Below are positions 2,179 to 50,632 of a stretch of DNA of 64,000 nt, in pieces (positions within the stretch are counted from its first letter, which is position 1; each line of letters starts with the position of its first letter). The notes below the pieces were generated by a model that saw only the letters and a program-made list of their open reading frames with translations, was not told where the DNA came from and did no database searches. Made by a program: the position numbers and the translations under genes. Origin of the DNA: Alphaproteobacteria bacterium (GTDB lineage Bacteria; Pseudomonadota; Alphaproteobacteria; RF32; CAG-239); contig JAGBHO010000054.1 in NCBI GenBank assembly GCA_017935485.1, positions 67,126 through 131,125 on the forward strand, given 5' to 3'.

Positions 2179-2183
2179 AAATT

Positions 2184-3125: not shown

Positions 3126-3173
3126 GAGATTATTTTATATTCTGAACAGAAATGAACTAGTGATTGGATAAAC

Positions 3174-4280
3174 ATGAACCCGCAGTCTATTCTTGGAAAA
3201 TATTTGACCAAACAGATTATTTACAATTTTTTGGCCGTCTTGCTGATGGTTATGGGGATTGTCATGCTGTTTGAAGTGGTTGAACTGCTGCGCCGCGCTT
3301 CCGGACGTGATGACGCTTCTTTCGGTTTTATTATGCAGATGGCTTTTACCAAGCTGCCCAAAACGGTTGAGATGGTTTTTCCGTTTGTGATGATGATTGC
3401 GGCGATGATTACTTTTTGGAAGCTCAGCAAAAGCAACGAGTTTGTGATTATCCGCAGTGCAGGTGTTTCAATCTGGGGGTTTTTGGCGCCGGTGTTGCTT
3501 GCAACTTTTTTAATCGGCGTGGTGAACGTGACGGTTGTGAATCCGATTTCCGCGCGAATGAACGAGCTGTATGAAACGTTGAATTATCGTTTTAAGACCC
3601 GTAACCCCAAAGCGGTTTTGTTTTCCGAAAAAGGATTGTGGCTGCGGGAAGCAATTGCTGCCGACAAGTTTCTTTATTTACAGGCAAAGTCCGTGCGTCA
3701 GGAACAAGACAGCCTTTTTTTACGCGGCGTGACGATTTTGGAAATGAACAGGGAATCGCAGAATTTGCGGCGGGTAGAGGCTTATGCCGCCAATCTGAAA
3801 GGCGATGAATTTGAGCTGATTAACGTTAAGGTTTACGAACCCGGAAAACCGACGCTTTCTCTCGATAAGGTTATGTATAAGACAACGTTGACGATTGAAC
3901 GGATTAAAGAGAATTTTGTGGAACCGGAATCTATTTCTTTTTGGGATTTGCCGGATACCATTCGTTTTTATGAAATGTCAGGCTTTTCGGCGCAAAAGCA
4001 CTGGCTGCGCTATCTTTCCCTGCTGGCTTCGCCCTTTTTGCTCTGTTCCATGGTTCTTGTTGCCGCCGTTTTTGCCCTGCGTCCGAACAACCGGCGGGGT
4101 GGGGTGATGTATCTGATTGTCGGCGGCCTTTCCACCGGTTTTATTGTTTATTTTATGTCGCAGGTTATTTATGCTTTCGGCGTTAACAATGTTATTCCCG
4201 GTTTTTTGGCGGTTTGGACGCCGGCGTTAATTGTGATGATGATTAGTGTGTCGGTTCTTCTCCATCTCGAAGACGGGTAA
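3174..4280 (+). CDS. LPS export ABC permease, LptF/LptG (YjgP/YjgQ) family
   Basis: 368 aa with three N-terminal TM segments, a large periplasmic loop and three C-terminal TM segments, as in LptF/LptG. I cannot tell F from G by eye. Confidence 0.85.
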   Translation: MNPQSILGKYLTKQIIYNFLAVLLMVMGIVMLFEVVELLRRASGRDDASFGFIMQMAFTKLPKTVEMVFPFVMMIAAMITFWKLSKSNEFVIIRSAGVSIWGFLAPVLLATFLIGVVNVTVVNPISARMNELYETLNYRFKTRNPKAVLFSEKGLWLREAIAADKFLYLQAKSVRQEQDSLFLRGVTILEMNRESQNLRRVEAYAANLKGDEFELINVKVYEPGKPTLSLDKVMYKTTLTIERIKENFVEPESISFWDLPDTIRFYEMSGFSAQKHWLRYLSLLASPFLLCSMVLVAAVFALRPNNRRGGVMYLIVGGLSTGFIVYFMSQVIYAFGVNNVIPGFLAVWTPALIVMMISVSVLLHLEDG

Positions 4281-4404
4281 AAACTGCGTATAATGGCCGA
4301 CTAATACAGATTTAGCGGGATGGAGAAATGCTCATGTACTATTTTGTACACTCCGCTTTCTCCACCCTAAAATCTTATTATTCGGCTCATTCTCCGCAGT
4401 TTTT
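4280..4404 (+). repeat. nested-palindrome element unit A1 (full 125-bp unit with outer arms)
   Basis: Outer arms TAAAAACTGCG / CGCAGTTTTTA, second arms cgTATAATGGccgac / tcggCTCATTCTCcg, then TAATACAGA-stem-core(CTCATGTAC..GTACACTCC)-stem-CTTATTAT. Starts at the last A of the TAA stop. Confidence 0.9.
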
Positions 4405-4429
4405 ATAAAAACCGCGCAATACGGACGCT

Positions 4430-4509
4430 TAATACAGAAAAAGAAAATCCGGCTAAGTTACGTACGTCTATGTACGTGCCTGTCGCCGGATTTTCTTTTT
4501 CTTATTATC
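4430..4509 (+). repeat. nested-palindrome element unit A2 (80-bp inner unit)
   Basis: TAATACAGA + agaaaaagaaaatccggc / gccggattttctttttct perfect 18-bp stem around the loop taagttacgtacgtctatgtacgtgcctgtc, then CTTATTAT. Confidence 0.9.
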
Positions 4510-4512
4510 CGT

Positions 4513-4575
4513 CTTAGGCATCCAGGCGCGCTGCGGTTGCTCACGCTTTCCTTGCTTGCCAAGATGTTCCAAAGA
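4513..4575 (+). repeat. 63-nt tail module of the element array (copy 1 of 2)
   Basis: cttaggcatccaggcgcgctgcggttgctcacgctttccttgcttgccaagatgttccaaaga. A near-identical copy lies at 44535..44597, and its 28-nt core recurs at 28121 and 28513. Confidence 0.85.
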
Positions 4576-4585
4576 GCTTGCAGAC

Positions 4586-4613
4586 AAAAACAACCGGAGC
4601 AGCGGTTGTTTTT
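4586..4613. terminator. bidirectional intrinsic terminator
   Basis: aaaaacaaccg-gagcag-cggttgttttt: 11-bp stem with an A-run and a T-run, between convergent genes. Confidence 0.7.
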
Positions 4614-4672
4614 ACTTAGCGCTTCTATCGCGTTTTTTACAGCGGCCTGAAAGGGAAGACAGTTATCGGATT

Positions 4673-6037: not shown

Positions 6038-7107
6038 CAGTTTTCTTTGTCCTTGTTTATGGTATCTTTGATTTCTTCAAAATTATTTTTGATTTCGTTA
6101 ATTACGTTTCTGTTCATTTCACGAAAGCTCCGGTTGGCGTCCTGCCAGTTTTTTACCTTGCTCAGATACCAGACGGTAATGATTGCGCTTAAGACCGGAA
6201 TGGAATAGATATTTGAGGAATAGGCTTCAAAATAGCCTAAAACGATCATGACGATTTCCAGCCGCAAAATATTGTTGGCGATGTTTTCCGGAGAAAGGCC
6301 GGAAACGTTGGCCTGAAAATAAGCGGTGTTGGTGATGACATCGGCATATTTGTCTCTTAAGAACAGGGTTTGCAACAAAGCCCAGGAGATTTCTATTATG
6401 TAGAACATGTTAAAAATGACAATACTCGGCGCGGCTCCTTCCGAGACAGCGCGGAAAACAAGGCCGCCGAGCAGAAAGCCCAGAGCCGTGCAGCCGGCTT
6501 CGGATAATTGCAGGCGGGCAGGGTACCAGTTGAAAACCAAAAACGCAGCGATGACGGCTGCCAGAATCAAAGCGATTGCGCCAAGCATAAAAGGCAGCGC
6601 CGCAGCTAAAGACAAAAAGAAAATACCAGTGCAGACTGCCATGGCATGCAGTCCGGCAACAGTTTCTATACCATTTAAAAAACGGTACAAAAAGCTGAAT
6701 AAAAACCAGAGCAAGGTTATCAGCGGGATGCTGAAAAACGGTGGGATTTGGGAAAATGCAGAAATTTCCTGCGGCATGAAAAGGCTTAAAACCGCAGCGC
6801 AGCTTAAGATGGCCAGGCTGATGTATTTGGTGTCAAAACGGGAGGAAACATAAAAAATGACGGCGGAAGCTGCCAATAATGCCGGAAGTTCCCATAAAAC
6901 ATATTCGTTTATGAAATCATTGTCTTGCCGGAAAGCAATACTCAGCCCCAGGGCAAATACGGCAAAAATGCCGAAGATGATGACAAATGGCGAAAACGGA
7001 ATTTTACTTTGGGCAATCCGTATCCGGTTCAGAACATAAAAACAGCCAAAGCCCAAGAAAAAGCTTGCGGCCGTACAGATTATCAAAAGAGTGTTTTCAA
7101 AATTCAT
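6037..7107 (-). CDS. divergent MraY/WecA-like (GT4) polytopic membrane protein
   Basis: 356 aa, multi-TM. NGIETVAGL and FNWYPARLQLSEAGC line up with the NxxDGxDGL and FNxxPAxxFMGDxGS motifs, but with Asp replaced by Glu/Ala. Confidence 0.6.
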   Translation of the reverse strand: MNFENTLLIICTAASFFLGFGCFYVLNRIRIAQSKIPFSPFVIIFGIFAVFALGLSIAFRQDNDFINEYVLWELPALLAASAVIFYVSSRFDTKYISLAILSCAAVLSLFMPQEISAFSQIPPFFSIPLITLLWFLFSFLYRFLNGIETVAGLHAMAVCTGIFFLSLAAALPFMLGAIALILAAVIAAFLVFNWYPARLQLSEAGCTALGFLLGGLVFRAVSEGAAPSIVIFNMFYIIEISWALLQTLFLRDKYADVITNTAYFQANVSGLSPENIANNILRLEIVMIVLGYFEAYSSNIYSIPVLSAIITVWYLSKVKNWQDANRSFREMNRNVINEIKNNFEEIKDTINKDKEN

Positions 7108-9986: not shown

Positions 9987-12464
9987 ATGACTGACAGATA
10001 TAACGGAAAAGGCTCTTTTGAGGAATGGGCCAAAGAATGGGCGATGGAAGACCGCTATAATTTTAAGACAATTGAGAAAAAATGGCAAAGCATCTGGGAT
10101 GAAGAAAAAGCCTATAAGGTTGATATTGATAAGAACAAAGAAAAATATTATGTTCTGGTTGAGTTTCCGTATCCGTCGGGCGCCGGCCTGCACGTGGGAC
10201 ATCCGCGCTCTTATACCGCTTTGGACGTGGTTGCCCGCAAAAAAAGAATGCAGGGTTTTAATGTTTTGTATCCGATGGGTTTTGACGCATTCGGTCTGCC
10301 GGCGGAAAATTATGCCATTAAGACCGGCGTGCATCCCGCCGTTTCGACCAAGGCCAATATTGAAAACTTTACCCGCCAGCTGAAATCAATCGGGTTCAGC
10401 TTTGACTGGGACAGAGCTTTTAATACCTGTGATCCGGAATATTACAAATGGACACAGTGGATGTTTATCAAGCTCTTTGAAAAAGGTCTGGCTTATAAAA
10501 GCAAGATGGCAATCAATTGGTGTCCGTCCTGCAAGGTCGGTCTGGCCAACGAAGAAGTTGTCAACGGCTGCTGCGAACGCTGCGGAGCGCAGGTTGTGCG
10601 CAAGGATAAAGAACAATGGATGGTGGCTATTACAAAATATGCCGATCGTTTGATTAACGATTTGGATGATCTGGATTTTATTGAGCGGGTTAAAGCGCAG
10701 CAGGTTAACTGGATCGGCCGTTCGGAAGGTGCGGAACTTGATTTTGATTTGACCGATGCGCAGGGGAATCCTCTGGACGGTAAAAAGCTCAAAGTCTTTA
10801 CCACGCGTCCGGATACGGCTTTCGGCGTTACTTATATGGTTATGGCGCCGGAACATGAATTTGTAACCGCATTAATGCCGCGATTTGAAAATCCGTCAGA
10901 AGTTCAGGCTTATGTTGAGGCCACGGCTAAAAAGTCTGAGTTGCAGCGAACAATGGATGACAGCAAGACCGGCGTTGAGCTTAAAGGCATTAAGGCCAGA
11001 AATCCTTTTAACGGCGCTTTGATTCCGGTGTTTATTTCCGATTATGTCCTGACCGGATACGGTACGGGTGCGATTATGGCGGTGCCGGCACATGACCAGC
11101 GTGACTATGATTTTGCCAAGGCGTTTAATTTGCCGATTATTCAGGTTTTGGCCGGCGGCGATATTTCCGAAAAAGCCTGGGAAGAAGACGGCGAGCATAT
11201 CAATTCAGGTTTTATGGACGGTATGAACAAAGAAGACGCCATGAAAGCTGCCGTTGAATTTGCCGAGAAAGGCGGGTTCGGAAAATCAAAAGTCAATTTC
11301 AAACTGCGTGACTGGGTGTTCTCCCGCCAGCGTTACTGGGGCGAACCGATACCGATGGTTTATTGCGAGCATTGCGGCTGGCAGCCGGTGCCGGAAGACC
11401 AGCTGCCGCTGACTTTGCCGGAGGTTCCCGATTACCTGCCGAATGATAACGGCGACTCTCCTTTGGCCAAGGCAACAGACTGGGTGAATACGACTTGTCC
11501 GAAATGCGGTGCCCATGCCCGCAGAGAAACGGACGTTATGCCGAACTGGGCCGGATCTTCATGGTATTTTCTGCGTTATTGCGATCCGCATAATGACAAG
11601 GCGTTTGCTTCCAAAGAAGCTTTGGATTATTGGATGAACGTTGACTGGTATAACGGTGGTATGGAACATACGACGCTGCACCTGCTGTATTCGCGTTTTT
11701 GGCACAAATTCCTTTATGACTGTGGTTATGTGCCGATGAAAGAGCCTTATCAGCGCCGGACGTCGCATGGTATGATTTTGGCCGAGAACGGTGAGAAAAT
11801 GTCAAAATCACGCGGCAACGTAATTAATCCGGATGATATTGTCAACAATTACGGCGCAGACAGTTTTCGTCTTTATGAAATGTTTATCGGGCCGTTTGAC
11901 CAAGTGGCAATGTGGTCGGAAGACAGTCTGAACGGCGTGTACCGTTTTGTCGGCAAGATTTATAATCTGTTCAGAAAAGTTACCAAAAATGCCAAGGCGT
12001 CGGCCAAAGATATTCAGATAATGCACAAAACCATTCTTGAAGTAACCGAGAGAATCGATCAGATGAAGTTTAATACGGCGGTTTCTTCTTTGATGACTTA
12101 TGTCAACCATTTGTCTTCTTTGGATGAGATTGCGCCTGAGCTTTATGAAAATCTTTTGCTTTTGATGTGTCCGTTTACACCGCATCTGGCTGAAGAAATG
12201 TGGGCGCGTATGGGGCACACAACTTTGGCTATTAAAGAACCGTGGCCGAAAGGTGATGCCAAACTGGCGGAAGAAAATACCGTGACTTATGCTGTTCAGA
12301 TTTGCGGCAAAATGCGCGGTACGATTGACCTGCCGAAAGATGCCCCGAGAGAAGAAGTTGAAAAGGCGGCTCTCTCTCTTGAAAACGTTAAGCGGCAGCT
12401 TGAAGGCAAGGAGATTAGAAAGGTTATAGTGGTGCCCAACAAAATTATCAACCTTGTCGCGTAA
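9987..12464 (+). CDS. leuS: leucyl-tRNA synthetase
   Basis: HVGH (HIGH-class) and KMSKS motifs. The alternative start ATG 10044 (MEDRYNFKTIEKKWQSIW) matches the usual LeuS N-terminus better. Confidence 0.95.
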   Translation: MTDRYNGKGSFEEWAKEWAMEDRYNFKTIEKKWQSIWDEEKAYKVDIDKNKEKYYVLVEFPYPSGAGLHVGHPRSYTALDVVARKKRMQGFNVLYPMGFDAFGLPAENYAIKTGVHPAVSTKANIENFTRQLKSIGFSFDWDRAFNTCDPEYYKWTQWMFIKLFEKGLAYKSKMAINWCPSCKVGLANEEVVNGCCERCGAQVVRKDKEQWMVAITKYADRLINDLDDLDFIERVKAQQVNWIGRSEGAELDFDLTDAQGNPLDGKKLKVFTTRPDTAFGVTYMVMAPEHEFVTALMPRFENPSEVQAYVEATAKKSELQRTMDDSKTGVELKGIKARNPFNGALIPVFISDYVLTGYGTGAIMAVPAHDQRDYDFAKAFNLPIIQVLAGGDISEKAWEEDGEHINSGFMDGMNKEDAMKAAVEFAEKGGFGKSKVNFKLRDWVFSRQRYWGEPIPMVYCEHCGWQPVPEDQLPLTLPEVPDYLPNDNGDSPLAKATDWVNTTCPKCGAHARRETDVMPNWAGSSWYFLRYCDPHNDKAFASKEALDYWMNVDWYNGGMEHTTLHLLYSRFWHKFLYDCGYVPMKEPYQRRTSHGMILAENGEKMSKSRGNVINPDDIVNNYGADSFRLYEMFIGPFDQVAMWSEDSLNGVYRFVGKIYNLFRKVTKNAKASAKDIQIMHKTILEVTERIDQMKFNTAVSSLMTYVNHLSSLDEIAPELYENLLLLMCPFTPHLAEEMWARMGHTTLAIKEPWPKGDAKLAEENTVTYAVQICGKMRGTIDLPKDAPREEVEKAALSLENVKRQLEGKEIRKVIVVPNKIINLVA

Positions 12465-12588
12465 AAACTGCGTATAAAGGCCGACTAATACAGATTTAGC
12501 GGGATGGAGAAATGCTCATGTACTATTTTGTACACTCCGCTTTCTCCACCCTAAAATCTTATTATTCGGCTCATTCTCCGCAGTTTTT
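12464..12588 (+). repeat. nested-palindrome element unit B1 (full unit)
   Basis: Differs from A1 at one position that I can see (tataaagg versus tataatgg). Starts at the last A of the leuS TAA. Confidence 0.9.
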
Positions 12589-12613
12589 ATAAAAACCGCG
12601 CTCTGTGGTCACC

Positions 12614-12690
12614 TAATACAGAAAAAGAAAATCCGGCTAAGTCATGTACCACCACGTACACTCCTGTCGCCGGATTTCCTTTTTCTTCTT
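12614..12690 (+). repeat. nested-palindrome element unit B2 (inner unit)
   Basis: Same middle stem as A2 (aaaatccggc/gccggattt) but with the canonical core ctaagtcatgtaccaccacgtacactcctgtc. Confidence 0.88.
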
Positions 12691-21630: not shown

Positions 21631-21770
21631 TTTGTTTCTCCGGTTTTTTAGTTATTTATTTAAAATTTCCAAAGTCAAAACAGTGGAAATTCTCGGTTTA
21701 CAGCTCCTTATAGACAGTTTTTGTCGGCAAGTCAATGATTTTTTGAAGGAATTTTTGTATGGTAAAAAGA

Positions 21771-21874
21771 GGCGGAGAGAAATCCGGTGAGAAAATTAAT
21801 CTCGTAAATTGGGTTTACTTGCAAGGGTTTCTCTCCAAGGAATAAGGCGTTGTTTTGGCAACGCCTTTGTTTTT
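21771..21874 (+). ncRNA. candidate structured RNA / conserved 3' element, copy 1 (unverified)
   Basis: 12-bp stem ggagagaaatcc / gggtttctctcc enclosing about 42 nt, followed by aaggcgttg-ttttgg-caacgcctt + TGTTTTT. Only 2 differences in 103 nt versus copy 2. Confidence 0.3.
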
Positions 21875-22244
21875 AGTTTGTTGCGGAATCTTGGAATGTA
21901 TCGTCGAAGTAGTCTTTTCCTGTTACTGTCTTGTCACCGGTTGCGTATTGAACGATAGCGCCGGCAGCGGCCAAAATAGCCAAACCAACGGCCAGGGAAG
22001 CAAACGCGGACCATTTGATTTTGCCGAAAATAGCACCGAAGGCCAGTAAGACCAGACCGAAACCGCCGACAATAAACACAATGCTTTTTACATTCTGAAA
22101 AGTTGTGCCGGCTTTGGTTTTGGCAATATCCATCAAGCTGTTTTGTCCGCCGCCGGTGGCTGTTGCCATAGCCGATTCTGAAATGAGGACAAAGGCCAGA
22201 ATCAGGCAGATTGTCCAAATGTTTTTTCTGAGGAAGTTCATCAT
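21873..22244 (-). CDS. TrbC/VirB2-like type IV secretion pilin-like protein, paralogue 1
   Basis: 123 aa. Signal peptide ending AMA, then a GGG-containing mature N-terminus, then two hydrophobic helices separated by GKIKWS, as in VirB2 pilins. Confidence 0.6.
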   Translation of the reverse strand: MMNFLRKNIWTICLILAFVLISESAMATATGGGQNSLMDIAKTKAGTTFQNVKSIVFIVGGFGLVLLAFGAIFGKIKWSAFASLAVGLAILAAAGAIVQYATGDKTVTGKDYFDDTFQDSATN

Positions 22245-24869: not shown

Positions 24870-25247
24870 ATGTTTGGCTGGCTGGCAAAATTATTAATCT
24901 CGGGACCGATACAAGGCTCGGGTTGTGCGTGTTGCGAAGGAAAAAAGAAAAGATTGGAAAAAATGCAACAGGCGATTGCCGAGGGTGAGATTCCGGATTC
25001 CTTACAGTCCGAATCGGGGAAACTCAGTTTTAGTTCCGGCAGTTTTTCAGCGCATTTTAATCCGGACGGCAGCGGAGAGTTTGAATATTATGCCAAAAAT
25101 ACGGCAGAAGAAACCTGCAATTGCGGTGACGGATGTTCTTGCGGCGGAAGCTGCGGGGATGATGATGTCTGCCATTGCGGCCGAGGTGATGACTGCTGCA
25201 AGAAAACCGGAAAAAAACACGAAGGATGTTGTTGCGGAAAGCATTAA
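24870..25247 (+). CDS. Cys-rich protein with metallothionein-like C-terminal tail
   Basis: AAGGAG SD 8 nt upstream of the ATG. 125 aa; the last 45 aa carry 12 Cys (CNCGDGCSCGGSCGDDDVCHCGRGDDCCKKTGKKHEGCCCGKH), plus GCACCEG near the N-terminus. Confidence 0.7.
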   Translation: MFGWLAKLLISGPIQGSGCACCEGKKKRLEKMQQAIAEGEIPDSLQSESGKLSFSSGSFSAHFNPDGSGEFEYYAKNTAEETCNCGDGCSCGGSCGDDDVCHCGRGDDCCKKTGKKHEGCCCGKH

Positions 25248-25252
25248 GGAAA

Positions 25253-25356
25253 GGCGGAGAGAAATCCGGTGAGAAAATTAATCTCGTAAATTGGGTTTAC
25301 TTGCAAGGGTTTCTCTCCAAGGAATAAGGCGTTGTTCTGGCAACGCCTTTATTTTT
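25253..25356 (+). ncRNA. candidate structured RNA / conserved 3' element, copy 2 (unverified)
   Basis: Same stem-loop plus terminator as 21771..21874. Here it begins 6 nt after the stop of the Cys-rich gene on the same strand. Confidence 0.3.
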
Positions 25357-25726
25357 AGTTTGTTGCGGAATCTTGGAATGTATCTTTGAAATAGGAATCT
25401 TTTGTTGCTTGACTGTCGCCCGTTGCATATCTGACAATTGCACCGGCGGCGGCCAAAATAGCCAAACCAACGGCCAGAGAAGCAAAAGCCGACCATTTGA
25501 TTTTGCCGAAAATAGCACCGAATGCCAGTAAGACCAAACCAAAACCGCCGACAATAAACACAATGCTTTTTACGTTCTGAAAAGTTGTACCGGCTTTGGT
25601 CTTGGCAATATCCATCAAGCTGCCTTGTCCGCCGCCGGTATCGGCTGCCATAGCTGTTCCTGAAATGAGGACAAAGGCCAGAATCAGGCAGATTGTCCAA
25701 ATGTTTTTTCTGAGGAAGTTCATCAT
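25355..25726 (-). CDS. TrbC/VirB2-like pilin-like protein, paralogue 2
   Basis: 123 aa with 13 aa differences from paralogue 1, all near the signal-cleavage site or in the C-terminal tail. Confidence 0.6.
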   Translation of the reverse strand: MMNFLRKNIWTICLILAFVLISGTAMAADTGGGQGSLMDIAKTKAGTTFQNVKSIVFIVGGFGLVLLAFGAIFGKIKWSAFASLAVGLAILAAAGAIVRYATGDSQATKDSYFKDTFQDSATN

Positions 25727-27939: not shown

Positions 27940-28016
27940 GTACCCGTAGCTCAGTTGGATAGAGTATCGGCCTCCGACGCCGAGGGTCGTGGGTTCGAAT
28001 CCCTCCGGGTACGCCA
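27940..28016 (+). tRNA. tRNA-Arg (anticodon CCG)
   Basis: 77-nt cloverleaf folded by hand: acceptor gtacccg/cgggtac, D arm gctc-agttggata-gagt, anticodon arm tcggc-ctCCGac-gccga, T arm gtggg-ttcgaat-ccctc (one U-U mismatch), encoded CCA. Confidence 0.9.
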
Positions 28017-28270
28017 CTTCAAAATCCCCTGCATTGCTGGGGATTTTTTGTGATGTACCCTTCCGTTCAAACATCGCAGGAGCTTGTTTTCACGGGGAGG
28101 GATCCAAGCTTTCTTAGTTTCGCTGCGGTTGCTGCCGCTTTCCTTGCTCAACAAGTAAAGCTAGGGATACGTGCCAAAAATCTGACGTTGGTCAGTTTTT
28201 TGTCCCTATCCCCGTCCGGGTACGCCATAAATAAATGCCACCTCTTGCAGGTGGCATTTATTTATGTTGA
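27998..28270 (+). repeat. 273-bp direct repeat, copy 1 (starts inside the tRNA-Arg T-loop)
   Basis: Repeated at 28390..28662 (offset 392) with about seven substitutions by my count. Contains two copies of the tRNA 3'-end 13-mer tccgggtacgcca (28004, 28215). Confidence 0.9.
28021..28049 (+). terminator. intrinsic terminator after tRNA-Arg
   Basis: aaaatcccc-tgcattgct-ggggatttt + TT. An identical copy lies at 28413..28441. Confidence 0.75.
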
Positions 28271-28296
28271 GTATCGGCGGATTTGAACCCACGAGG
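28269..28296. other. rearranged tRNA-Arg fragments
   Basis: gagtatcggc (identical to tRNA positions 27962..27971) is fused to ggatttgaacccacgagg, the reverse complement of a T-arm copy (tcgtgggttcaaatcc versus tRNA tcgtgggttcgaatcc). Confidence 0.55.
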
Positions 28297-28389
28297 AAGT
28301 GGGTTTGACTACCAGCGAGAGGCGGGCGGAAGAACGCCGGTACGCGGAAGCGTATGAGCGCCCGTGCAACTCAAGCTATAGCGCAGAGT

Positions 28390-28662
28390 AATCCCTCCGG
28401 GTACGCCACTTCAAAATCCCCTGCATTGCTGGGGATTTTTTGTGATGTACCTTTCCGTTCAAACATCGCAGGAGCTTGTTTTCACGGGGAGGGCTCCAAG
28501 CTTTCTTAGTTTCGTTGCGGTTGCTGCCGCTTTCCTTGCTTAACAAGTAAAGCTAGGGATACGTGTCAAAAATCTGACGTTGGTCAGTTTTTTGTCCCTA
28601 TCCCCGTCCGGGTACGCCATAAATAAACGCCACCTCTTGCAGATGGCATTTATTTATGTTGG
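28390..28662 (+). repeat. 273-bp direct repeat, copy 2 (begins with a 19-nt exact copy of the tRNA-Arg 3' end)
   Basis: aatccctccgggtacgcca at 28390..28408, preceded by a D-arm-like agctatagcgcagagta. Further 13-mer copies at 28396 and 28607. Confidence 0.9.
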
Positions 28663-28671
28663 GTGTTGTCT

Positions 28672-41782: not shown

Positions 41783-44194
41783 ATGTTTGGTTTGAAAAAT
41801 TTTAAGACCTTTGCCGGTGCGTTGATGCTGGCGCTGGTCGGGGTTGTTCAGGGGGCATATGCTTCTGAAATTGACCTCAAAATTCCGTCTTTGGATGTGG
41901 AATACAACATCTTCGGTTATTCGGTTCTGGGTTCGCAGATTTTGCTGTATGGCATGAGTGTCTGCGTTTTGGGCATGCTTTTTGGTTTGTATGAGTTTCT
42001 TAAAATCAAAAAAATGCCTGCTCATGATGCCATGCTGAAGGTTTCGGAACTGATTTATGCAACCTGCAAAACTTATATGAAACAACAGGCTAAACTGCTT
42101 TTGGTTCTGGAAGTGTTTATTGCGGTTTGCATTTTTTACTATTTCTATTATCTCAATGCAACGCCGATGCCGAAAGTTCTGACTATCCTTTCCTGGTCGG
42201 TTCTGGGAATTCTCGGTTCTTATTCCGTGGCCTGGTTCGGCATGCGCATTAACAACTATGCCAATGCACGTACGGCTTTTTCTTCTTTGGAGGCAAAAGC
42301 TTATAAGGTTATGAGTCTGCCGTTGCGTTCCGGCATGTCTATCGGCGTTTTGCTGATTTGCGTTGAGCTGATTATGATGATTGCCATTCTTTTGTTTGTG
42401 CCGAAAGAAAGCGCCGGCGCCTGCTTTATCGGATTTGCCATCGGTGAATCGCTGGGTGCGGCGGCTTTGCGTATTTGCGGCGGCATTTTTACCAAGATTG
42501 CCGATATCGGTGCCGACCTGATGAAGATTATTTTCAAAATCGGCGAGGATGACGTTCGCAATCCGGGCGTCATTGCCGATTGTACCGGTGACAATGCCGG
42601 CGACTCCGTCGGGCCGACTGCCGACGGTTTTGAGACTTACGGCGTGACCGGCGTGGCGCTCATCAGCTTTATCGTTCTCGGCGCCGGCATGATGTATGCG
42701 CCGAACGGGGATCTGGCTCTGATGCCGAACGGCATTGATTTTCAGGCCCGTCTGATTGTCTGGATTTTTGCAATGCGTATCCTGATGATTATTACGTCGC
42801 TGATTTCTTATTGGTTTAACAACAAAGTTTCTTCCGCCCTTTACGGCAAAAAGAAGTTCTTTGATTTTGAAAAACCGCTGACAAGCCTGATTTGGTTTAC
42901 TTCTATCATCTCTATTGCCGTTACGTTCGGCGTATCTTATGTGATGATCGGCGATATCAGTCCGGATTTGTGGTGGAGATTGTCTCTGATTATCAGCTGC
43001 GGTACTCTGGCTGCTGCTCTGATTCCGGAGTTTACCAAAATCTTTACTTCTTCAAAATCCCAGCATGTGCAGGAAATTGTCAAATCCAGCCGTGAAGCCG
43101 GGGCTTCCCTGAACATTATTTCCGGTATCGTGGCCGGTAATTTCTCAGCTTTCTGGCAGGGTATCGTGATGGTTGGCCTGATGGTGGTTGCTTTCTTTAC
43201 CGCGCAATCAGGTCTTGGCGATTTTATGGTTTATCCGACAGTGTTTGCTTTCGGTCTGGTGGCATTCGGCATGCTCGGCATGGGGCCGGTTACGATTGCG
43301 GTAGACAGCTATGGTCCGGTTACCGACAATGCGCAATCTGTTTTTGAGTTGTCTCAGATTGAAAGCGTTAAGAACGTTAGCAAAGAGATTGAGAAAAAAT
43401 ACGATTTTAAACCGGATTTTGAACAAGGCAAGCATTTGCTTGAAGCTAACGACAGTGCCGGGAACACCTTTAAGGCAACAGCCAAGCCGGTTCTTATCGG
43501 TACGGCGGTTATCGGGGCTACGACAATGATTTTCTCAATCATTTTGCTGTTGAACCTGAAGCTTAATCTGTTGGATCCGCAGGTTCTGTTCGGTTTGATT
43601 CTCGGCGGTGCGGTAATTTACTGGTTCTCGGGCGCTTCCATGCAGGCGGTTTCGACCGGTGCTTATCGTGCGGTTGACTTTATTAAAAAACATATCAAGC
43701 TGAGCGGTACAAAGGCTGCTTCAAAGAAAGATTCTCAAGAAGTTGTTAAAATCTGCACAATCTATGCGCAAAAAGGGATGTTTAACATCTTTATCGTAAT
43801 CTTTTCCTTTACGATCGCCTTTGCCTGCTTTGATGCAAATCTGTTTGCAAGCTATCTGATTTCAATTGCCGTTTTTGGTTTGTTTCAGGCGCTGTTTATG
43901 GCGAATGCCGGCGGTGCATGGGATAATGCCAAAAAAGTGGTTGAGGTTGATTTGAACGAGAAAGGCACGCCGCTGCATGACGCTACCGTTGTCGGCGATA
44001 CGGTTGGAGATCCGTTCAAAGATACATCTTCCGTCGCTCTCAATCCGATTATCAAGTTTACGACCTTGTTCGGTTTGCTGGCGGTTGAAATGGCGGTTGC
44101 CGCACCGAGATGTGTTTCTCTCGGCCTGGGTATTTTCTTCTTATTGTTGGGGTTGGTGTTTGTATATCGGTCCTTCTACAAGATGAAAATATAA
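41783..44194 (+). CDS. hppA: membrane-bound pyrophosphatase (M-PPase), divergent
   Basis: 803 aa with GGIFTKIADIGADL, GDTVGDPFKDTS, GGAWDNAKK, and Lys in GNTFKA. The acidic motif reads DCTGDNAGDSVGPTADGFETY rather than the canonical form. Confidence 0.9.
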   Translation: MFGLKNFKTFAGALMLALVGVVQGAYASEIDLKIPSLDVEYNIFGYSVLGSQILLYGMSVCVLGMLFGLYEFLKIKKMPAHDAMLKVSELIYATCKTYMKQQAKLLLVLEVFIAVCIFYYFYYLNATPMPKVLTILSWSVLGILGSYSVAWFGMRINNYANARTAFSSLEAKAYKVMSLPLRSGMSIGVLLICVELIMMIAILLFVPKESAGACFIGFAIGESLGAAALRICGGIFTKIADIGADLMKIIFKIGEDDVRNPGVIADCTGDNAGDSVGPTADGFETYGVTGVALISFIVLGAGMMYAPNGDLALMPNGIDFQARLIVWIFAMRILMIITSLISYWFNNKVSSALYGKKKFFDFEKPLTSLIWFTSIISIAVTFGVSYVMIGDISPDLWWRLSLIISCGTLAAALIPEFTKIFTSSKSQHVQEIVKSSREAGASLNIISGIVAGNFSAFWQGIVMVGLMVVAFFTAQSGLGDFMVYPTVFAFGLVAFGMLGMGPVTIAVDSYGPVTDNAQSVFELSQIESVKNVSKEIEKKYDFKPDFEQGKHLLEANDSAGNTFKATAKPVLIGTAVIGATTMIFSIILLLNLKLNLLDPQVLFGLILGGAVIYWFSGASMQAVSTGAYRAVDFIKKHIKLSGTKAASKKDSQEVVKICTIYAQKGMFNIFIVIFSFTIAFACFDANLFASYLISIAVFGLFQALFMANAGGAWDNAKKVVEVDLNEKGTPLHDATVVGDTVGDPFKDTSSVALNPIIKFTTLFGLLAVEMAVAAPRCVSLGLGIFFLLLGLVFVYRSFYKMKI

Positions 44195-44318
44195 AAAATC
44201 ACGTATAATGGTCTATTAATACAGAAAAAATCTTTAAGGCTAAGTCATGTACCACTACGTACACTCCTGTCGCCTTAAAGGTTTTTTCTTATTACTAGCC
44301 TCATTCTCCGTAATTTTT
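44194..44318 (+). repeat. nested-palindrome element unit C1 (full unit)
   Basis: Starts at the hppA TAA. Outer arms aaaaatcacgTATAATGGtctat / actagcCTCATTCTCcgtaattttt; stem tctttaaggc/gccttaaagg; canonical core. Confidence 0.88.
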
Positions 44319-44320
44319 GT

Positions 44321-44444
44321 AAACACCGCGTATAAAGGGCTATTAATACAGAAATAGCAAAAGGAAGTTTCCTCACGTACTGCTATGTACGCTGCGGTAC
44401 TTCCTTTTTTATTTCTTATTACTAGCCTCTTTTTCCGCGTTTTT
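44321..44444 (+). repeat. nested-palindrome element unit C2 (full unit)
   Basis: cgTATAAAGGgctat...actagcCTCTTTTTCcg; stem caaaaggaagt/acttcctttt; core ttcctcacgtactgctatgtacgctgcggt. Confidence 0.85.
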
Positions 44445-44453
44445 ATAAAACCC

Positions 44454-44531
44454 TAATACAGAAAAAAATTTTAGCTAAGTCATGTAATATTATGTACACT
44501 CCTGTCGCTAAAATTCTTTTTTCTTATTATC
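44454..44531 (+). repeat. nested-palindrome element unit C3 (inner unit)
   Basis: TAATACAGA + aaaaaaattttagc / gctaaaattcttttt + CTTATTAT; core ctaagtcatgtaatattatgtacactcctgtc. Confidence 0.88.
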
Positions 44532-44534
44532 TGA

Positions 44535-44597
44535 CTTAGGCATCCGGGCTCGCTGCGGTTGCTTACGCTTTCCTTGCTTGCCAAGATGTTCCAAAGA
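44535..44597 (+). repeat. 63-nt tail module (copy 2 of 2)
   Basis: cttaggcatccgggctcgctgcggttgcttacgctttccttgcttgccaagatgttccaaaga; same length as 4513..4575 with few substitutions. Confidence 0.85.
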
Positions 44598-44732
44598 CAC
44601 AGAGTTAGTTATTATTTGTTGTTTGGTGCTGATATTCGTTTAAGGCATTGCGGAGAGTAGTGAATATTTCTTCTGTATCTTCTTGAAAGAGATAAGCAGG
44701 GACTTGTATGCAATATTTATTATACTGTCTTT

Positions 44733-45119
44733 TTAATTTCGGAGAAATCTTTGAGGCTTATTTAATCTTTGAAGAATGCTGTTGATATTTTTAATCTTAA
44801 TTTTGATTGTGTTCTGTTTTTTATGATTTATCAGCTCAATATTCTGTATTTCGGAATAATAAATAAAGCCAAATCCATAATAATTGTCAACAATTCCTTG
44901 AGGGGTTATTATTAAGAGAGGTTTATTCCAGCTTCTTATCTGAATGTATTTTATGCATAGGTACAGGGAATGTAAAAGTATAATGGCTAAAAAAGCCGCT
45001 TTTAAAGGATCTTTATCTGCATAGTGTATGGTTAATATACCGCTGCAAAGGATACATAGAACCATAATGCGGATTATTTCAGAACAACGGGATTTAGAAA
45101 TCTTAAATTCTCTTGTCAT
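44733..45119 (-). CDS. small membrane protein, function unknown (A+T-rich)
   Basis: 128 aa with two N-terminal TM segments and an AAGGA SD upstream of the ATG at 45119. Confidence 0.55.
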   Translation of the reverse strand: MTREFKISKSRCSEIIRIMVLCILCSGILTIHYADKDPLKAAFLAIILLHSLYLCIKYIQIRSWNKPLLIITPQGIVDNYYGFGFIYYSEIQNIELINHKKQNTIKIKIKNINSILQRLNKPQRFLRN

Positions 45120-45151
45120 TATTTTTCCTTATATCCGGAGTGAAAGTCAAG

Positions 45152-47431
45152 TTATCCTTCCAGAATTTCCCGTTTGCCGGCATGGTCAGGGGCGCTGATG
45201 ATGCCATCTTCTTCCATGCGTTCAATCAGGGTGGCCGCTTTATTGTAACCAATTCTGAGCCGGCGCTGGACATAGCTGATGGAGGTTTTTTTATCACTTT
45301 TGACGATGGCAACGGCCTGAGCGTACAAATCGTCTTCTCCGCCGCCGGCGCCTCCGCCGAAACTGCCTTTGTCGAAGACGGCGCCGCTGTCTTTCTCATT
45401 CAGCTGCCCTTCGGTTACGCCTTCAACGTATTCCGGCGCTTTTTGCGATTTTAAGAATTCGACAATGCTTTCAATTTCGCTGTCTTTGACGAATCCGGCA
45501 TGAACGCGCAGCGGACGTTGACCGGCCGGCATATAGAGCATATCACCCATGCCGAGCAGTTGTTCGGCGCCTTGCTCACCCAGAATGGTGCGGCTGTCGA
45601 TTTTGGAAGTGACTTGAAAGCTGATGCGGGTCGGGAAGTTGGCTTTAATCGTACCGGTGATGACGTCAACGGACGGGCGTTGCGTGGACATAATCAGGTG
45701 CAGGCCGGCGGCACGCGCCATTTGCGCCAACCGCTGGATGGCGGCTTCAACCTCTTTGCCGGCGACAAGCATCAGGTCGGCCATTTCATCAACGATAATG
45801 ACAATATAAGGCAGCGGCGTAAGGTCTAAGTCTTGTTCTTCATAAATCGGTGCGCCGGTCTCGGCATCAAATCCGGTTTGAATGGTGCGTTTTATCTTTT
45901 GTCCGCTGGCTTTAAGCTCACGCAGTTTCTGATTATAGCCGGAAATGTTGCGGACGTTGAGCTGAGCCATGGCACGGTAGCGGTCTTCCATTTCCTTGAC
46001 GGCCCATTTTAAGCCGATAACCGCTTTGGCGGGATCGGTAATGACCGGCGTCAACAAATGCGGAATGCCGTTGTACAGCGAAAATTCGAGCATTTTCGGG
46101 TCAATCATGATAAGTTTGCATTCATCCGGCCGCATTTTATACAGCAGTGACAGAATCATGGTGTTGACGCCGACGGATTTACCGGAACCGGTCGTACCGG
46201 CAACCAACAGGTGCGGCATTTTGGCAAGGTCGGCATAGATGTTTTTGCCGCCGATGTCTTTGCCGAGCGTGACGGTTAACGCGCCTTTGGCGTTTTGAAA
46301 TTCGTCGCTGTCAAGCAATTCACGCAGGTAGACGATTTCGCGGGTCGGGTTCGGCATTTCAATACCAATGGTGTTGCTGCCCGGAACAACGGCAATACGG
46401 ACGGAAACGGCGCTCATTGAGCGGGCAATATCATCGGCCAGACTGATAACGCGGGCAGTTTTGGTGCCGGGAGCCGGTTCAAGTTCATAAAGCGTGACGA
46501 CCGGTCCAGGGCGGATTTTAACAATTTTGCCGTTGATGCCGAATTCCTGCAGGACGTTTTCCAAATCGAGTGCGATTTTATCCAGTTCTTTCTGGCTGAC
46601 GGTATGGGTATTTTTTTCTTTGGGTTTGGACAAGATGTCCATGCTCGGATATTGATAATTGTCACCGGCGGGTTCCGGCGTGAAGGGTTTGGACTTTTCG
46701 AATCCGGGTTCTTTTTTCTCTTCTTTGGCGGTTTTTTCTTTTTTGCGGCGCGGAGATTTTTCTTTTTCCGTTTTTGTCGGATTTTCTTCGCGGTATTGCG
46801 GTGCAAAGCTGAAAATATAGCGGAAAGCGGCAACAGTCCATAAAGCGGCGGTTTTAATCCGGCCGGCAATGCGGCGGCCAAGGGCAAACCAGTTGCGATA
46901 TGTGATTCCGGCGGCAAAGTTGAAGAAGAATATTGAAGACAGCAATAATATCGTGCCGAAAATCCAATCGGCATAGCCATAGACGTAAAACTTTTTGAAC
47001 AAGGTCAGGGTATGCCCGGCAAACAAGTTGCCGACCGTGCCGCCGAGCCGGAAAGTTCCGGTAACGTCGGGCAGAAGGCTTAAAAACATGGAAAATGTTA
47101 AAATGCCGAAAATAAAAGACAAAGAGCGGCAGACCGCAAATTCCAGCCTTTTCAGGCGTATCAGGCTAAAACCCCAGACGAAAGCGGCGCATAAAAACGG
47201 AAAAAGCGCAATGCCGAAATAATTAAAGATGAAAGCGGCCGTGTTTGCGCCGCCGTGTCCTAAAAAGTTTTTGACCGGTGTTGCGGAGGCCAGCAGAAAA
47301 GAATTGTCGTCAATATGATAAAAGGCACAGCTCAGCAAGGCATATACCGAAAGCAGAACCAGCAGCGCGCCCCAGAAGCGCCAGAGGGTTTTGACAATAA
47401 AACTTTTTTCTTTTTTCTTTTTCTTGGCCAT
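45152..47431 (-). CDS. ftsK: DNA translocase FtsK
   Basis: 759 aa with N-terminal TM segments, a Lys/Glu/Pro linker, a motor domain with GTTGSGKS, and a C-terminal gamma domain (ISYVQRRLRIGYNKAATLIERME). Confidence 0.95.
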   Translation of the reverse strand: MAKKKKKEKSFIVKTLWRFWGALLVLLSVYALLSCAFYHIDDNSFLLASATPVKNFLGHGGANTAAFIFNYFGIALFPFLCAAFVWGFSLIRLKRLEFAVCRSLSFIFGILTFSMFLSLLPDVTGTFRLGGTVGNLFAGHTLTLFKKFYVYGYADWIFGTILLLSSIFFFNFAAGITYRNWFALGRRIAGRIKTAALWTVAAFRYIFSFAPQYREENPTKTEKEKSPRRKKEKTAKEEKKEPGFEKSKPFTPEPAGDNYQYPSMDILSKPKEKNTHTVSQKELDKIALDLENVLQEFGINGKIVKIRPGPVVTLYELEPAPGTKTARVISLADDIARSMSAVSVRIAVVPGSNTIGIEMPNPTREIVYLRELLDSDEFQNAKGALTVTLGKDIGGKNIYADLAKMPHLLVAGTTGSGKSVGVNTMILSLLYKMRPDECKLIMIDPKMLEFSLYNGIPHLLTPVITDPAKAVIGLKWAVKEMEDRYRAMAQLNVRNISGYNQKLRELKASGQKIKRTIQTGFDAETGAPIYEEQDLDLTPLPYIVIIVDEMADLMLVAGKEVEAAIQRLAQMARAAGLHLIMSTQRPSVDVITGTIKANFPTRISFQVTSKIDSRTILGEQGAEQLLGMGDMLYMPAGQRPLRVHAGFVKDSEIESIVEFLKSQKAPEYVEGVTEGQLNEKDSGAVFDKGSFGGGAGGGEDDLYAQAVAIVKSDKKTSISYVQRRLRIGYNKAATLIERMEEDGIISAPDHAGKREILEG

Positions 47432-48600: not shown

Positions 48601-49338
48601 ATGTTTAGATTAGATGGAAAAGTTGCCCTGATTACCGGTGCCGCCGGCGGACTGGGTGATAAAATCGCCCGTACGCTGCATGCTCAGGGAGCAACTCTGG
48701 CTTTGACCGATATGCGTGAAGAGCCGATGCTTAAGCTGAAGGAAGAGCTGGGTTCCAATGTTGAGGTTTTTACCGCCAACCTGACAAATCCTGAAGATGT
48801 AAAATCTTTGGTTGAGAAAGTTGAGGAAAAACTTGGCCGTATTGATATTTTGGTAAACAATGCCGGTTTGACACGCGACAATCTCTTTATCAGAATGAGT
48901 GATGAAGACTGGCAGCTGGTTTTGGATGTTAACCTTTCAGCCGGTTTCAAATTGGCAAAAGCTGCCGTTCGCGGCATGATGAAGCGCCGTTTCGGCCGTA
49001 TCATCGGTATTGCCTCGGTTGTCGGTGTTACCGGAAATGCCGGTCAGGCCAACTATTCCGCTTCCAAGGCCGGTATGATCGCCATGAACAAATGTCTGGC
49101 TCAGGAGGTCGGTTCGCGCGGCATTACCGTAAATTCAATTGCTCCGGGCTTTATCCGCACGCCGATGACCGATGTTTTGCCTGATGATGTTAAAGCCGCC
49201 CTTTTGGCCAAAATTCCGGAAGGCAAGCTTGGCGAAGCTCAGGATATTGCGAACGTTGTTGCATTCCTTGCGTCTGATGAAGCGCAATATATTACGGGAC
49301 AGACTATTAATATTAATGGCGGAATGGCCATGATATAA
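48601..49338 (+). CDS. fabG: 3-oxoacyl-ACP reductase
   Basis: TGAAGGLG, NNAG and YSASKAG SDR motifs; follows fabD. Confidence 0.95.
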   Translation: MFRLDGKVALITGAAGGLGDKIARTLHAQGATLALTDMREEPMLKLKEELGSNVEVFTANLTNPEDVKSLVEKVEEKLGRIDILVNNAGLTRDNLFIRMSDEDWQLVLDVNLSAGFKLAKAAVRGMMKRRFGRIIGIASVVGVTGNAGQANYSASKAGMIAMNKCLAQEVGSRGITVNSIAPGFIRTPMTDVLPDDVKAALLAKIPEGKLGEAQDIANVVAFLASDEAQYITGQTININGGMAMI

Positions 49339-49460
49339 AACCGCGTATAATGGTCGACTAATACAGATTTAGCGGGTTGGAGAAATGCTCATGTACTACT
49401 TTGTACACTCCGCTTTCTCCACCCTAAAATCTTATTATTCGACTCATTCTCCGCGGTTTT
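49338..49460 (+). repeat. nested-palindrome element unit D1 (full unit)
   Basis: Same as A1/B1 except for paired substitutions in both arms: accgcg/cgcggt versus actgcg/cgcagt, and ggtcgac/tcgactc versus ggccgac/tcggctc. Confidence 0.9.
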
Positions 49461-49477
49461 ATAAAACTATGGGCACC

Positions 49478-49557: not shown

Positions 49558-49686
49558 TGCCTCATATATCAAGTTTTAATTTTTTAAGACCAGTTATGCT
49601 TGTTTCTTTTCTTCTTATTTTTTGTACATTAGTTTTTGCTTCACAAACAGCATTTTTTTAAGATTATTCCTATGGAAGTCTGGTAC

Positions 49687-49732: not shown

Positions 49733-50632
49733 TTATGCATTTCGATGAAATTGTTTTATTGAATAAATGGCACACCAGCCGTACGCGATTGTTACTATCA
49801 TGCTAAGTAAAATTGTGACAGGATAATCAATCGGTAACATATAAAAGCCGAATGTAAAACTACCGCTTATAAAAAGCAACCAATAGAGGATTATGACTGT
49901 TAAAACAATTTTGCAGAGAAAAACTTTGTAGCGCCCCTCATTTATATTAGTAAAACAAAGTATAATACTTGATAAAGGGAAAAAGAAATAAAATAGGACA
50001 TTTAAGATACACAAGCTCCAATTTTGCAGTGTAAGCTTTTTTATCTTTTCCAATTCTGTAATTTGTTTGTCTCTTTCAGCACACAAGGCTGTCTTTTTTT
50101 CATGATAACAGATTTCTTTTTCTGTATAGCCGGATGTTGGTTTTGCAGCATCGATTTCTGTTATCTTTTTTTGCAGCGCCTGAAGCTTAAGCTCTGTTTT
50201 ATCCAATTTTGCGGTTTTGTACCGGGCAAAACGGTTTAAAACGGCCTCTTCAGAATACCACGGAATTTGATCTGCAGATTTGGATTGTTCAACTTTGGGT
50301 GAACAGTTTAATTTCCGGAGCTTTTCCTGTTTTTTTTGTTCTGCTTCAGTTGCCCATTTTTCCTTGTTCTGTAAACAATAGTTTCCACCGAATCCAAACA
50401 ACATAATTGTTGCCGAGATGCCAATCATAAGCAGCCAGACCCTTGTCCGCTTCCGTTGGTAATTTTCTTCTGTCCAGTAAATTTTGACAATTTGTTCCGG
50501 AGCAACAGATGCCGAGGGGGTAATGTTCTGCTTTGCAAATTCTTTACGAAGTTGTTTTAATTTGGCTGCACCATATAAAATGCAAAATCCAACCAGTGCT
50601 GAACTGATAGAAATAATCAAAAAATTTTCCAT
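49733..50632 (-). CDS. membrane protein with central coiled-coil, function unknown (A+T-rich)
   Basis: 299 aa with TM segments at both ends and a Lys/Glu/Gln-rich central region. No SD seen. Confidence 0.5.
   Translation of the reverse strand: MENFLIISISSALVGFCILYGAAKLKQLRKEFAKQNITPSASVAPEQIVKIYWTEENYQRKRTRVWLLMIGISATIMLFGFGGNYCLQNKEKWATEAEQKKQEKLRKLNCSPKVEQSKSADQIPWYSEEAVLNRFARYKTAKLDKTELKLQALQKKITEIDAAKPTSGYTEKEICYHEKKTALCAERDKQITELEKIKKLTLQNWSLCILNVLFYFFFPLSSIILCFTNINEGRYKVFLCKIVLTVIILYWLLFISGSFTFGFYMLPIDYPVTILLSMIVTIAYGWCAIYSIKQFHRNA

Follow-up and report, generated by a model that had tools for sequence, protein, structure and literature searches.

A family of long hairpin repeats that begin on stop codons and keep largely to the G-rich strand of gut Alphaproteobacteria

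The DNA analyzed here, hereafter the window, is a 64,000-nt stretch of contig JAGBHO010000054.1 (assembly GCA_017935485.1, positions 67,126 to 131,125, forward strand) from an Alphaproteobacteria bacterium of the GTDB lineage RF32; CAG-239. Its main subject is a hairpin repeat, which we call H. Three H units stand head to tail directly after the pyrophosphatase gene hppA (44192-44535) and are followed by a 62-nt tail (44536-44597), and the hppA TAA stop codon (44192-44194) is itself the first triplet of the array. Overall, the window contains nine H units, which are spread over four loci and without exception lie on the + strand. Unit bounds at the hppA locus were set by a covariance model (CM) and a hidden Markov model (HMM) built in this analysis, with CM matches at 44190-44322, 44325-44441, and 44453-44531. 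The features of the locus are:

41783..44194, + strand: hppA, H+-translocating pyrophosphatase, an 803-aa open reading frame (ORF) from the ORF list; Pfam H_PPase, E = 5.7e-186
44192/44194-44319, + strand: H unit C1, full length; CM 114.5 bits
Within C1: 5' arm of the outer stem from ~44194; conserved TAATACAG 44217-44224; variable stem 44225-44240 paired with 44272-44287; conserved apical module 44241-44271; CTTATTA 44288-44294; 3' lower arms 44295-44319
44286..44302, + strand: 17-nt TTCTTATTACTAGCCTC, repeated exactly at 44413-44429 (exact pattern matches)
44320-44447, + strand: H unit C2, full length; CM 93.8 bits; TAATACAG 44344-44351, CTTATTA 44415-44421
44448-44535, + strand: H unit C3, without the two outer 5' arms; CM 59.1 bits, model positions 27-108; TAATACAG 44454-44461, CTTATTA 44523-44529
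44536..44597, + strand: tail, 62 nt from the 5' end of another repeat, T; matches 4514-4575

The hppA array is not a chance pattern. C1 and C2 reached RNA folding energies of -39.1 kcal/mol (z = -8.4) and -49.7 kcal/mol (z = -8.5), which none of 200 shuffles matched, and folds with DNA parameters gave z = -6.4 for C1, -6.7 for C2, and -4.2 for C3, whose 3' arm is broken by the T insertion after CTTATTATCTGAC. The H core pattern matched eight times in the 64-kb window, always on the + strand, compared to 0 matches in 100 shuffles. Tandem Repeats Finder did not report the array because its copies are too diverged. An initial annotation, made from the letters alone, had described three back-to-back units after the hppA TAA, each with its own self-complementary stem, and a tail shared with another locus of the window. 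This description was accurate to within a few bases: the three stem pairs it quoted are present and paired in the minimum-free-energy folds, these folds are far more stable than shuffled controls, and the tail does recur at that other locus (locus A, below).

Each H unit forms one imperfect hairpin of ~125 nt with four helices. In the outer stem, AAAA-nnnCG pairs with CGnnn-TTTT, the first bases usually being the stop codon, and the stem ends in a run of 4-6 T that pairs with the 5' A-run; the foot consensus is AAAAnnnCG, followed by TATAAYGG, TCTAGCTGG, CTCTGTGG, and similar sequences. The second helix is variable (e.g., TATAATGG/CTCATTCTC) and occurs in compensated versions across subfamilies (TCTAGCTGG/CACGCTATC, CTCTGTGG/TCACATATC, and TATTTTGG/GCAAACTC). 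Above it, TAATACAG pairs with CTTATTA in a conserved helix that leaves a C bulged (TAATA-C-AG/CTTATTA), and between this helix and the apex sits a variable helix of free sequence, enclosing a ~31-nt loop region that includes a conserved mini-hairpin, CATGTAC-N6-GTACAC. The variable-stem, constant-loop pattern proposed at the outset is thus real, but the constant part extends beyond the loop to the TAATACAG/CTTATTA helix and the apical mini-hairpin, and two further helices lie outside. By contrast, the proposed role of CTTATTA as the U-rich end of each stem was not supported: CTTATTA is not a free U-tract, being paired with TAATACAG in 81 of 81 copies. A side feature of some units is a conserved unpaired 3' extension, ACAGCGGYCTGAAAGG, which lies beyond the outer stem in CTCTGTGG-type and T-bearing units (e.g., window 4640-4655, and contigs L043, L073, L090, and L115) and has no 5' partner.

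Structure conservation was evaluated on these 81 diverse H copies, aligned with MAFFT without regard to structure. RNAalifold predicted 44 pairs, 32 of which showed double changes. Overall, 95.5% of pair cells were paired, compared to 72% in shuffles and ≤52% in slid controls, and double-change cells numbered 821 versus 246 in shuffles. The motifs TAATACAG, TACACTCC, and CTTATTA were fixed by the search pattern used to collect the copies; the CM, however, also recovered copies departing from these fixed motifs, and there too the helix covaries, e.g., from A-T to G-C at several positions. Structured RNA normally tolerates G·U far better than A·C. In H, with one conserved G·T column set aside, 141 model-aligned copies displayed 124 G·T/T·G and 121 A·C/C·A mismatches, and minus-strand folds equaled or exceeded plus-strand folds in stability. 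This symmetry would be expected from a DNA hairpin or from arm-to-arm correction, while very strict selection on double-stranded RNA could also produce it. Given the equal mismatch numbers, we did not take covariation as proof of RNA function, and H illustrates a more general caution, i.e., that perfect covariation by itself did not show such a function. No Rfam family matched H or T in gathering or E-value mode (the latter run on 44100-44700 and 4480-4670), and tRNA-Arg was the sole family reaching threshold in the window.

H is anchored to stop codons well beyond this window. A scan of GTDB species genomes placed it in more than 117 contig stretches among the matches listed, nearly all from metagenome-assembled genomes of uncultured gut Alphaproteobacteria (human, deer, sheep, reindeer, and chicken 'Candidatus Scatocola'), and an HMM search of 0.93 Mb of H-centred loci identified 217 H copies. 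The array started on the stop codon of a sense ORF (≥60 codons) for 122 of the 136 arrays with enough upstream sequence, the stop usually falling on H model positions 3-5, and 20 ORFs end at TAAs within H (offsets 16, 27, and 38). Among 788 genes with downstream room, 98 had a sense copy at the stop and 4 an antisense copy, and at least one of these four cases (L068) is the far end of a convergent gene's array. Stops at H comprised 92 TAA, 27 TAG, and 3 TGA, against a background of 399, 109, and 108, respectively, so that TGA was rarer at H (3/122 vs 108/616). The scarcity of TGA would be compatible with a target that contains TA as well as with a stop codon brought in by H itself. TA...TA borders most H copies.

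At these gene ends, H holds the position of ordinary terminators, at the ends of transcription units. Orthologous sites lacking H have canonical intrinsic terminators 10-30 nt past the stop (L036, L013, L034 (fabG), L054, L103, L035, and L050), and in a crude scan of our own a canonical terminator lay 3' of 10 of 80 H arrays, compared to 53 of 206 gene ends without H. Junctions with H were convergent in 42 of 90 cases (47%), versus 99 of 361 in the background (27%), and at co-directional junctions ~155 nt remain beyond H, versus 47 nt in operons. A consensus terminator scan returned 0 sites between 44000 and 45200, and H arrays would escape terminator predictors. H may terminate transcription. 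A role at transcript 3' ends, which the initial annotation had raised in the form of an RNA-processing or stability module, is plausible from the unit-end position and from the terminators at H-less sites, while a module purpose-built as RNA is disfavored (see below). Translation may be touched as well: H folds with -40 to -55 kcal/mol and encloses the stop codon, and repetitive extragenic palindromes (REPs) ≤15 nt from a stop codon have been reported to stall ribosomes in E. coli (PMC12306157), which together make an effect of H on translation termination plausible by analogy.

The second regularity is strand polarity: H is nearly confined to the G-rich strand, where it is sense to the upstream gene. 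With the elements masked, the G-rich strand carried 177 of 184 H copies. Once gene strands were separated, the replication component of GC skew on the H strand amounted to +0.119±0.005, and to +0.23±0.01 at third codon positions, and this strand holds 62% of coding bases. In bacteria, the strand with positive GC skew is the leading strand; the positive skew and the share of coding bases therefore suggest that the H strand is the leading strand. Among genes at transcription-unit ends, the leading:lagging ratio was 80:1 with H and 206:169 without, so that gene class is insufficient as a cause of the strand bias. Of the other genes in these loci, 17 of 391 on the same strand carried H, versus 1 of 317 on the opposite strand. 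The same polarity was seen for T (14/14) and for two sister hairpin families described below, H2 (10/11) and H3 (5/5), all sampled beside H and hence not independent of it. H thus joins two polarities seldom found together, being sense to its gene and co-oriented with replication. Within the window, GC skew of the + strand ranged from +0.08 to +0.22 throughout (8-kb windows); skew is unusually strong and uniform across the window and all loci, for a gene-strand bias of merely 55-62%.

The other three H loci of the window follow an lptF/lptG-family gene (locus A), leuS (locus B), and fabG (locus D), with an lptE-like gene (Pfam) 3' of locus B:

4278..4405, + strand: H unit A1, beginning on the TAA of the lptF/lptG-family gene (Pfam); CM 137.6 bits
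4406..4641, + strand: H unit A2, split by a complete T; H parts 4406-4513 and 4620-4641, T 4514-4619
4514-4619, + strand: complete T, 106 nt, inserted in A2, with TTAG on either side
12462..12690, + strand: locus B after leuS; B1 12462-12589, CM 131.9 bits; 3'-truncated B2 12590-~12690, 54.9 bits
49336..49580, + strand: locus D after fabG; D1 49336-49463, CM 139.5 bits; D2 49464-~49580, 84.8 bits

Locus A explains the tail of the hppA array. The tail is an element distinct from H, which inserts into H units. In A2, the complete T brings its own terminator-like hairpin (AAAAACAACCGG...CCGGTTGTTTTT), after which the H unit picks up again with CGCTTCTATCGCGTTTTTTAC, and A2 without T folds as a complete closed H hairpin (DNA fold z = -7.2). 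More generally, T has (C)TTAG at its borders and contains two hairpins: the first is variable and surrounds a conserved core (GCTGCGGTTGCT..CGCTTTCCTTGCT), and the second, 3' of it, resembles a canonical terminator. The copy after hppA ends at 44597, short of this terminator-like hairpin, with an identical truncation in all retrieved strains. A partly degenerate tail pattern (3-mismatch limit) matched exactly twice in the window versus 0 expected, and a wider 136-nt repeat shared by the tail and locus A is 82% identical. In other genomes, T-type inserts interrupt H units at the apical loop or within the 3' arm and share the orientation of H without exception; further T copies occur in L014, L015, L018, L082, L088, L117, and L118 (2501-2617), and an unverified faecal 'Bacteriophage sp.' record has T alone.

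A T-like module also occurs at a tRNA gene of the window. There (27940-28664), a 275-nt sequence stands twice in direct orientation 3' of tRNA-Arg(CCG), at 27998-28272 and at 28390-28664 (97% identity); both copies open with the tRNA 3' end and contain the T-like module (28086-28216, DNA fold z = -5.2) and terminator hairpins. These look like duplicated attachment-site remnants of an integrating element. A 300-nt direct repeat at 21763-22062 and 25245-25544 (88% identical, 3.5 kb apart) is unrelated to H.

Between strains, arrays gain, lose, and exchange units. Strain loci were found through a neighboring 128-aa gene and the FabG protein; an exact-protein look-up of HppA returned no record. 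After hppA, L132 and L133 carry the three-unit form, whereas L129 (GCA_964328985.1) has two units and a spacer of 412 nt instead of 539 nt: it is without unit C2, and its array joins the 5' part of C1 to the 3' tail of C2. The sequence implies that this one-unit difference came about by a crossover within or beside the TTCTTATTACTAGCCTC repeat. In L043, whose hppA is 90% identical to that of the window, array composition differs again. Similarly, downstream of an identical FabG protein we found the window form, a form with an extra 108-nt H3 unit between the stop and D1, a very different multi-unit array, and a form in which D2 carries a full T and a different gene follows. At the leuS site, L045 (leuS 92% identical) has four units to the window's two, and the variable stem of its orthologous last unit is another one, while the window's stem is identical to that of A2, at a different locus of this genome; the match suggests stem replacement by gene conversion. 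In practical terms, for this abundant but uncultured clade, arrays break assemblies (two of five fetched hppA-locus contigs end within the array), and array lengths are usable for strain typing. Gene content downstream of fabG also varies among strains whose FabG protein is identical (window 49733-50632 vs L120, L122, L123, and L125), with a breakpoint at the hairpin array and either a 299-aa membrane/coiled-coil protein without known family or an ASCH-domain gene followed by grpE.

Two sister hairpin families, H2 and H3, share an H-like outer stem and a similar apical mini-hairpin, have other middle modules, and likewise begin on stop codons. The middle module is ATCTAGAGGCATTT/AAATGCCTCTATCTGT in H2 (seen in L077, L095, L029, and L027) and CTCGTGTAGC...GTACACGTCG in H3 (seen in L016, L115, L097, L119, and L126). 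In the window, ~49586-49665, 3' of D2, resembles the 5' part of H3 and no longer folds (z = +0.6). Four H-bearing contigs (L019, L021, L092, and L110) are binned as Lactobacillus, Lactobacillales, or Firmicutes and may be mis-binned; H could flag such cases and serve as a lineage marker in contamination checks. One of them, L021 (CAYJES010000042.1), is phage-like at 700-6805, where it encodes a ParE toxin as well as a portal and an adaptor of SU10 type. H had no match among PLSDB plasmids, INPHARED phages, or IMG/VR (0 matches to the H pattern); in INPHARED, the T part alone matched, in three unverified faecal 'Bacteriophage sp.' records.

Taken together, dispersal, strain variation, replication polarity, and strand-symmetric pairing argue for a DNA-level mobile element over a purpose-built RNA module. 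The explanation we favor, with somewhat more confidence than doubt, is that H is a selfish hairpin repeat similar to REPINs and miniature inverted-repeat transposable elements (MITEs), its hairpin being handled as single-stranded DNA, shuffled by recombination, and tolerated or co-opted as a transcript-end hairpin. The top-strand hairpin of H would be recognized as single-stranded DNA on the lagging-strand template, which would account for its replication polarity, as in IS200/IS605 and REP-RAYT. Further shuffling, of unit numbers as well as of stems, would come from unequal crossover and gene conversion between copies. H would be transcribed together with the gene before it, and its outer stem and T-run may serve this gene as a tolerated or co-opted 3'-end hairpin or terminator; with the stop codon in the stem base, H may also slow translation termination.

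Several observations weigh against a mobile element of this kind. The search for a partner enzyme, a tblastn of the 0.93 Mb of H-centred loci with IS200, IS608, and RAYT queries, gave nothing below E = 0.09. There were no H halves flanking an ORF, and the split copies that were found hold T-type inserts of ~105-120 nt. A GT[AG]G or CGTC tag is lacking at the foot of H, which does not appear to be built of two short REP palindromes, and pairs of filled and empty sites gave no unambiguous target duplication. Sense orientation and stop abutment would equally fit selection on RNA function, and homologous recombination alone could explain every strain difference seen. The leading-strand call rests on GC skew and gene-orientation bias instead of a mapped origin, and the phage-like L021 holds four H units in both orientations, two of them back to back after convergent genes. 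The genes between neighboring H copies are ordinary (histidine kinase, acetate kinase, phage portal, and HNH endonuclease). As for the convergent hypothetical proteins next to the hppA and fabG arrays, considered as candidate nucleases, they were rejected, one being of the STM3941 family and the other a membrane/coiled-coil protein. A bolder extension, which we hold only tentatively and consider doubtful, is that H, H2, H3, and T are new fork-coupled mobile elements that place new copies of themselves on stop codons of genes on the leading strand and over time replace host intrinsic terminators. Copying would then proceed through an enzyme unrelated to RAYT/TnpA, or without any enzyme by template switching at TAAAA microhomology, and, if so, a selfish repeat would set transcription and translation termination at many genes of this clade.

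The main rival to a selfish repeat is that H is a lineage-specific, cis-acting long terminator or 3'-end protective hairpin that modulates translation termination, kept by selection on RNA and multiplied by duplication and recombination only. We regard this as a serious contender, albeit an unlikely one. It would account for the strict sense orientation and start at the stop codon, for the transcription-unit-end position where canonical terminators are replaced, and for the conservation of loops and bulge on the sense strand, including one conserved G·U position, and the ribosome stalling reported at REPs would suit it too. The mismatch counts, however, reveal no wobble preference, minus-strand folds are at least as stable, and the near-absence of H from lagging-strand genes (1 vs 80) has no obvious reason at the RNA level; moreover, unit number and stem identity vary between strains with identical upstream proteins, and truncated and interrupted units persist.

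Three further readings are far less probable. That each variable stem with its CTTATTA is a canonical intrinsic terminator, so that three are stacked in the array, was the initial annotation's own suggestion, and the stems are indeed real and stable, with T-rich 3' arms. We nonetheless consider it very unlikely, since the folding unit is the whole ~125-nt hairpin closed by the A-run/T-run outer stem, with a ~31-nt loop region in the stem, CTTATTA is itself paired in every copy, and the scan of 44000-45200 was empty. An attC-like nature, i.e., folded single-stranded tyrosine recombinase sites marking gene cassettes, would fit a structure conserved with free sequence, the conserved bulges, the place directly 3' of an ORF in sense, and the strand polarity. 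Yet H follows dispersed core genes (leuS, fabG, hppA, and lptF/G), tandem units succeed one another without an intervening ORF, unit ends are TAAAAAC...GTTTTTA instead of the R''/R' boxes RYYYAAC...GTTRRRY, the conserved part is the apex and not the base, and there was no integrase among the array neighbors in the window, to which that scan was limited; we therefore give this reading very little credence. Hardly credible, finally, is that H units encode trans-acting small RNAs, or a mini-protein starting at the ATG of the conserved CATGTAC: some subfamilies do have a GGAG 8 nt 5' of this ATG, and the apical sequence is conserved, but no Rfam family matches and no promoter is conserved across subfamilies, and the mini-ORF was rejected in view of an apical loop that varies from ~4 to 8 nt and of immediate stops in some copies, e.g., ATG TAC CGC TAG in L005.

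How, then, does H compare with described systems? A canonical intrinsic terminator has a G+C-rich stem of ~5-14 bp, a loop of 3-8 nt, and a U-tract immediately 3'; with its ~31-nt loop region and ~125-nt unit, H departs from this stem-loop. Integron attC sites conserve structure over sequence, have extrahelical bases, lie just 3' of an ORF in sense, and are used as single strands; their ORF-attC cassettes stand beside intI. H shares the conserved structure, the extrahelical bases, and the position, would share the single-strand use, and differs from attC in following core genes, in its tandem units without ORFs, in its end motifs, and in its conserved apex. MITEs such as Correia, ERIC, and RUP measure 100-155 bp and, once transcribed along with a gene, fold as long RNA hairpins that influence the stability or termination of the transcript (partly from PMC3049150). 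These TA-duplicating elements resemble H in size, hairpin, and TA...TA borders; unlike H, they insert in either orientation, have sequence-conserved terminal inverted repeats, and show no replication polarity. An assignment of H to TA-duplicating MITEs of the IS630/Tc1-like kind is contradicted by its 98 sense versus 4 antisense copies at stops and by its replication polarity, and no empty site proves a duplication.

The orientation of H is closer to that of elements mobilized as single strands. Y1 transposases act on the lagging-strand template (PMC6006769), and in IS200/IS605-derived PATEs, as in H with its 177 of 184 copies on the G-rich strand, orientation is tied to this template. PATE ends are recognized as DNA hairpins, not as sequence-identical inverted ends (PMC6006769), but PATEs have separate left and right subterminal hairpins and a defined 4-5 nt target without duplication. 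H is instead a single end-to-end hairpin with a stop codon on its left flank (119 of 122 read TA[A/G]) at a variable offset, and no TnpA/TnpB partner was seen for it in the sampled loci. REPIN hairpins display compensatory changes and form replichore-oriented arrays (PMC3116915). Like REPIN/REP-RAYT systems, H is extragenic, multi-copy, and vertically persistent, a ~100-nt-class hairpin with compensatory changes and tandem arrays that follow the replichore; handling as single-stranded DNA, proposed for those systems (PMC3116915, PMC6006769), would be shared as well. However, REPs are defined by a GT[AG]G tag at the hairpin foot (PMC6006769), and a CGTC tag is also named for them (PMC3733652), and H conserves neither. 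In contrast to REPIN doublets, no short palindrome was seen within either H arm on reading the sequences, and H has a conserved apex and internal helix, strict sense orientation, and stop abutment. A cognate RAYT, in REP-RAYT a single-copy gene with the repeats on its flanks, was not found for H in the H-centred loci with the IS200, IS608, and RAYT queries.

The closest functional analogue of H is the pneumococcal SPRITE, a small AT-rich interspersed repeat with AAAA...TTTT ends and a terminator-like fold, which is enriched near gene 3' ends and between convergent genes and for which co-option as a terminator has been proposed (PMC3049150). SPRITE and H are alike in size class, AT-rich ends, fold, and enrichment at gene ends and convergent junctions, and both are without a defined empty site or target duplication (PMC3049150). 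They differ in build, SPRITE being an 18-bp duplex with a long U-rich tract (PMC3049150) and H a fully paired four-helix hairpin of ~125 nt, and in strand preference: 63% of SPRITEs are on the leading strand, mirroring coding bias (PMC3049150), compared to 96% of H copies against 55-62% for genes. Unlike SPRITE, H opens with the stop codon, occurs in tandem arrays, and shows covariation in stems of free sequence. Overall, H is an interspersed hairpin repeat of REPIN, SPRITE, or MITE type, undescribed to our knowledge and in the literature searched, and it is unusual in being anchored to stop codons and, at the same time, almost absolutely polarized with replication. If confirmed, this would make H an unusually clean natural system for studying target choice by single-strand-specific mobile DNA, and likewise the co-option of selfish repeats as gene-end signals.

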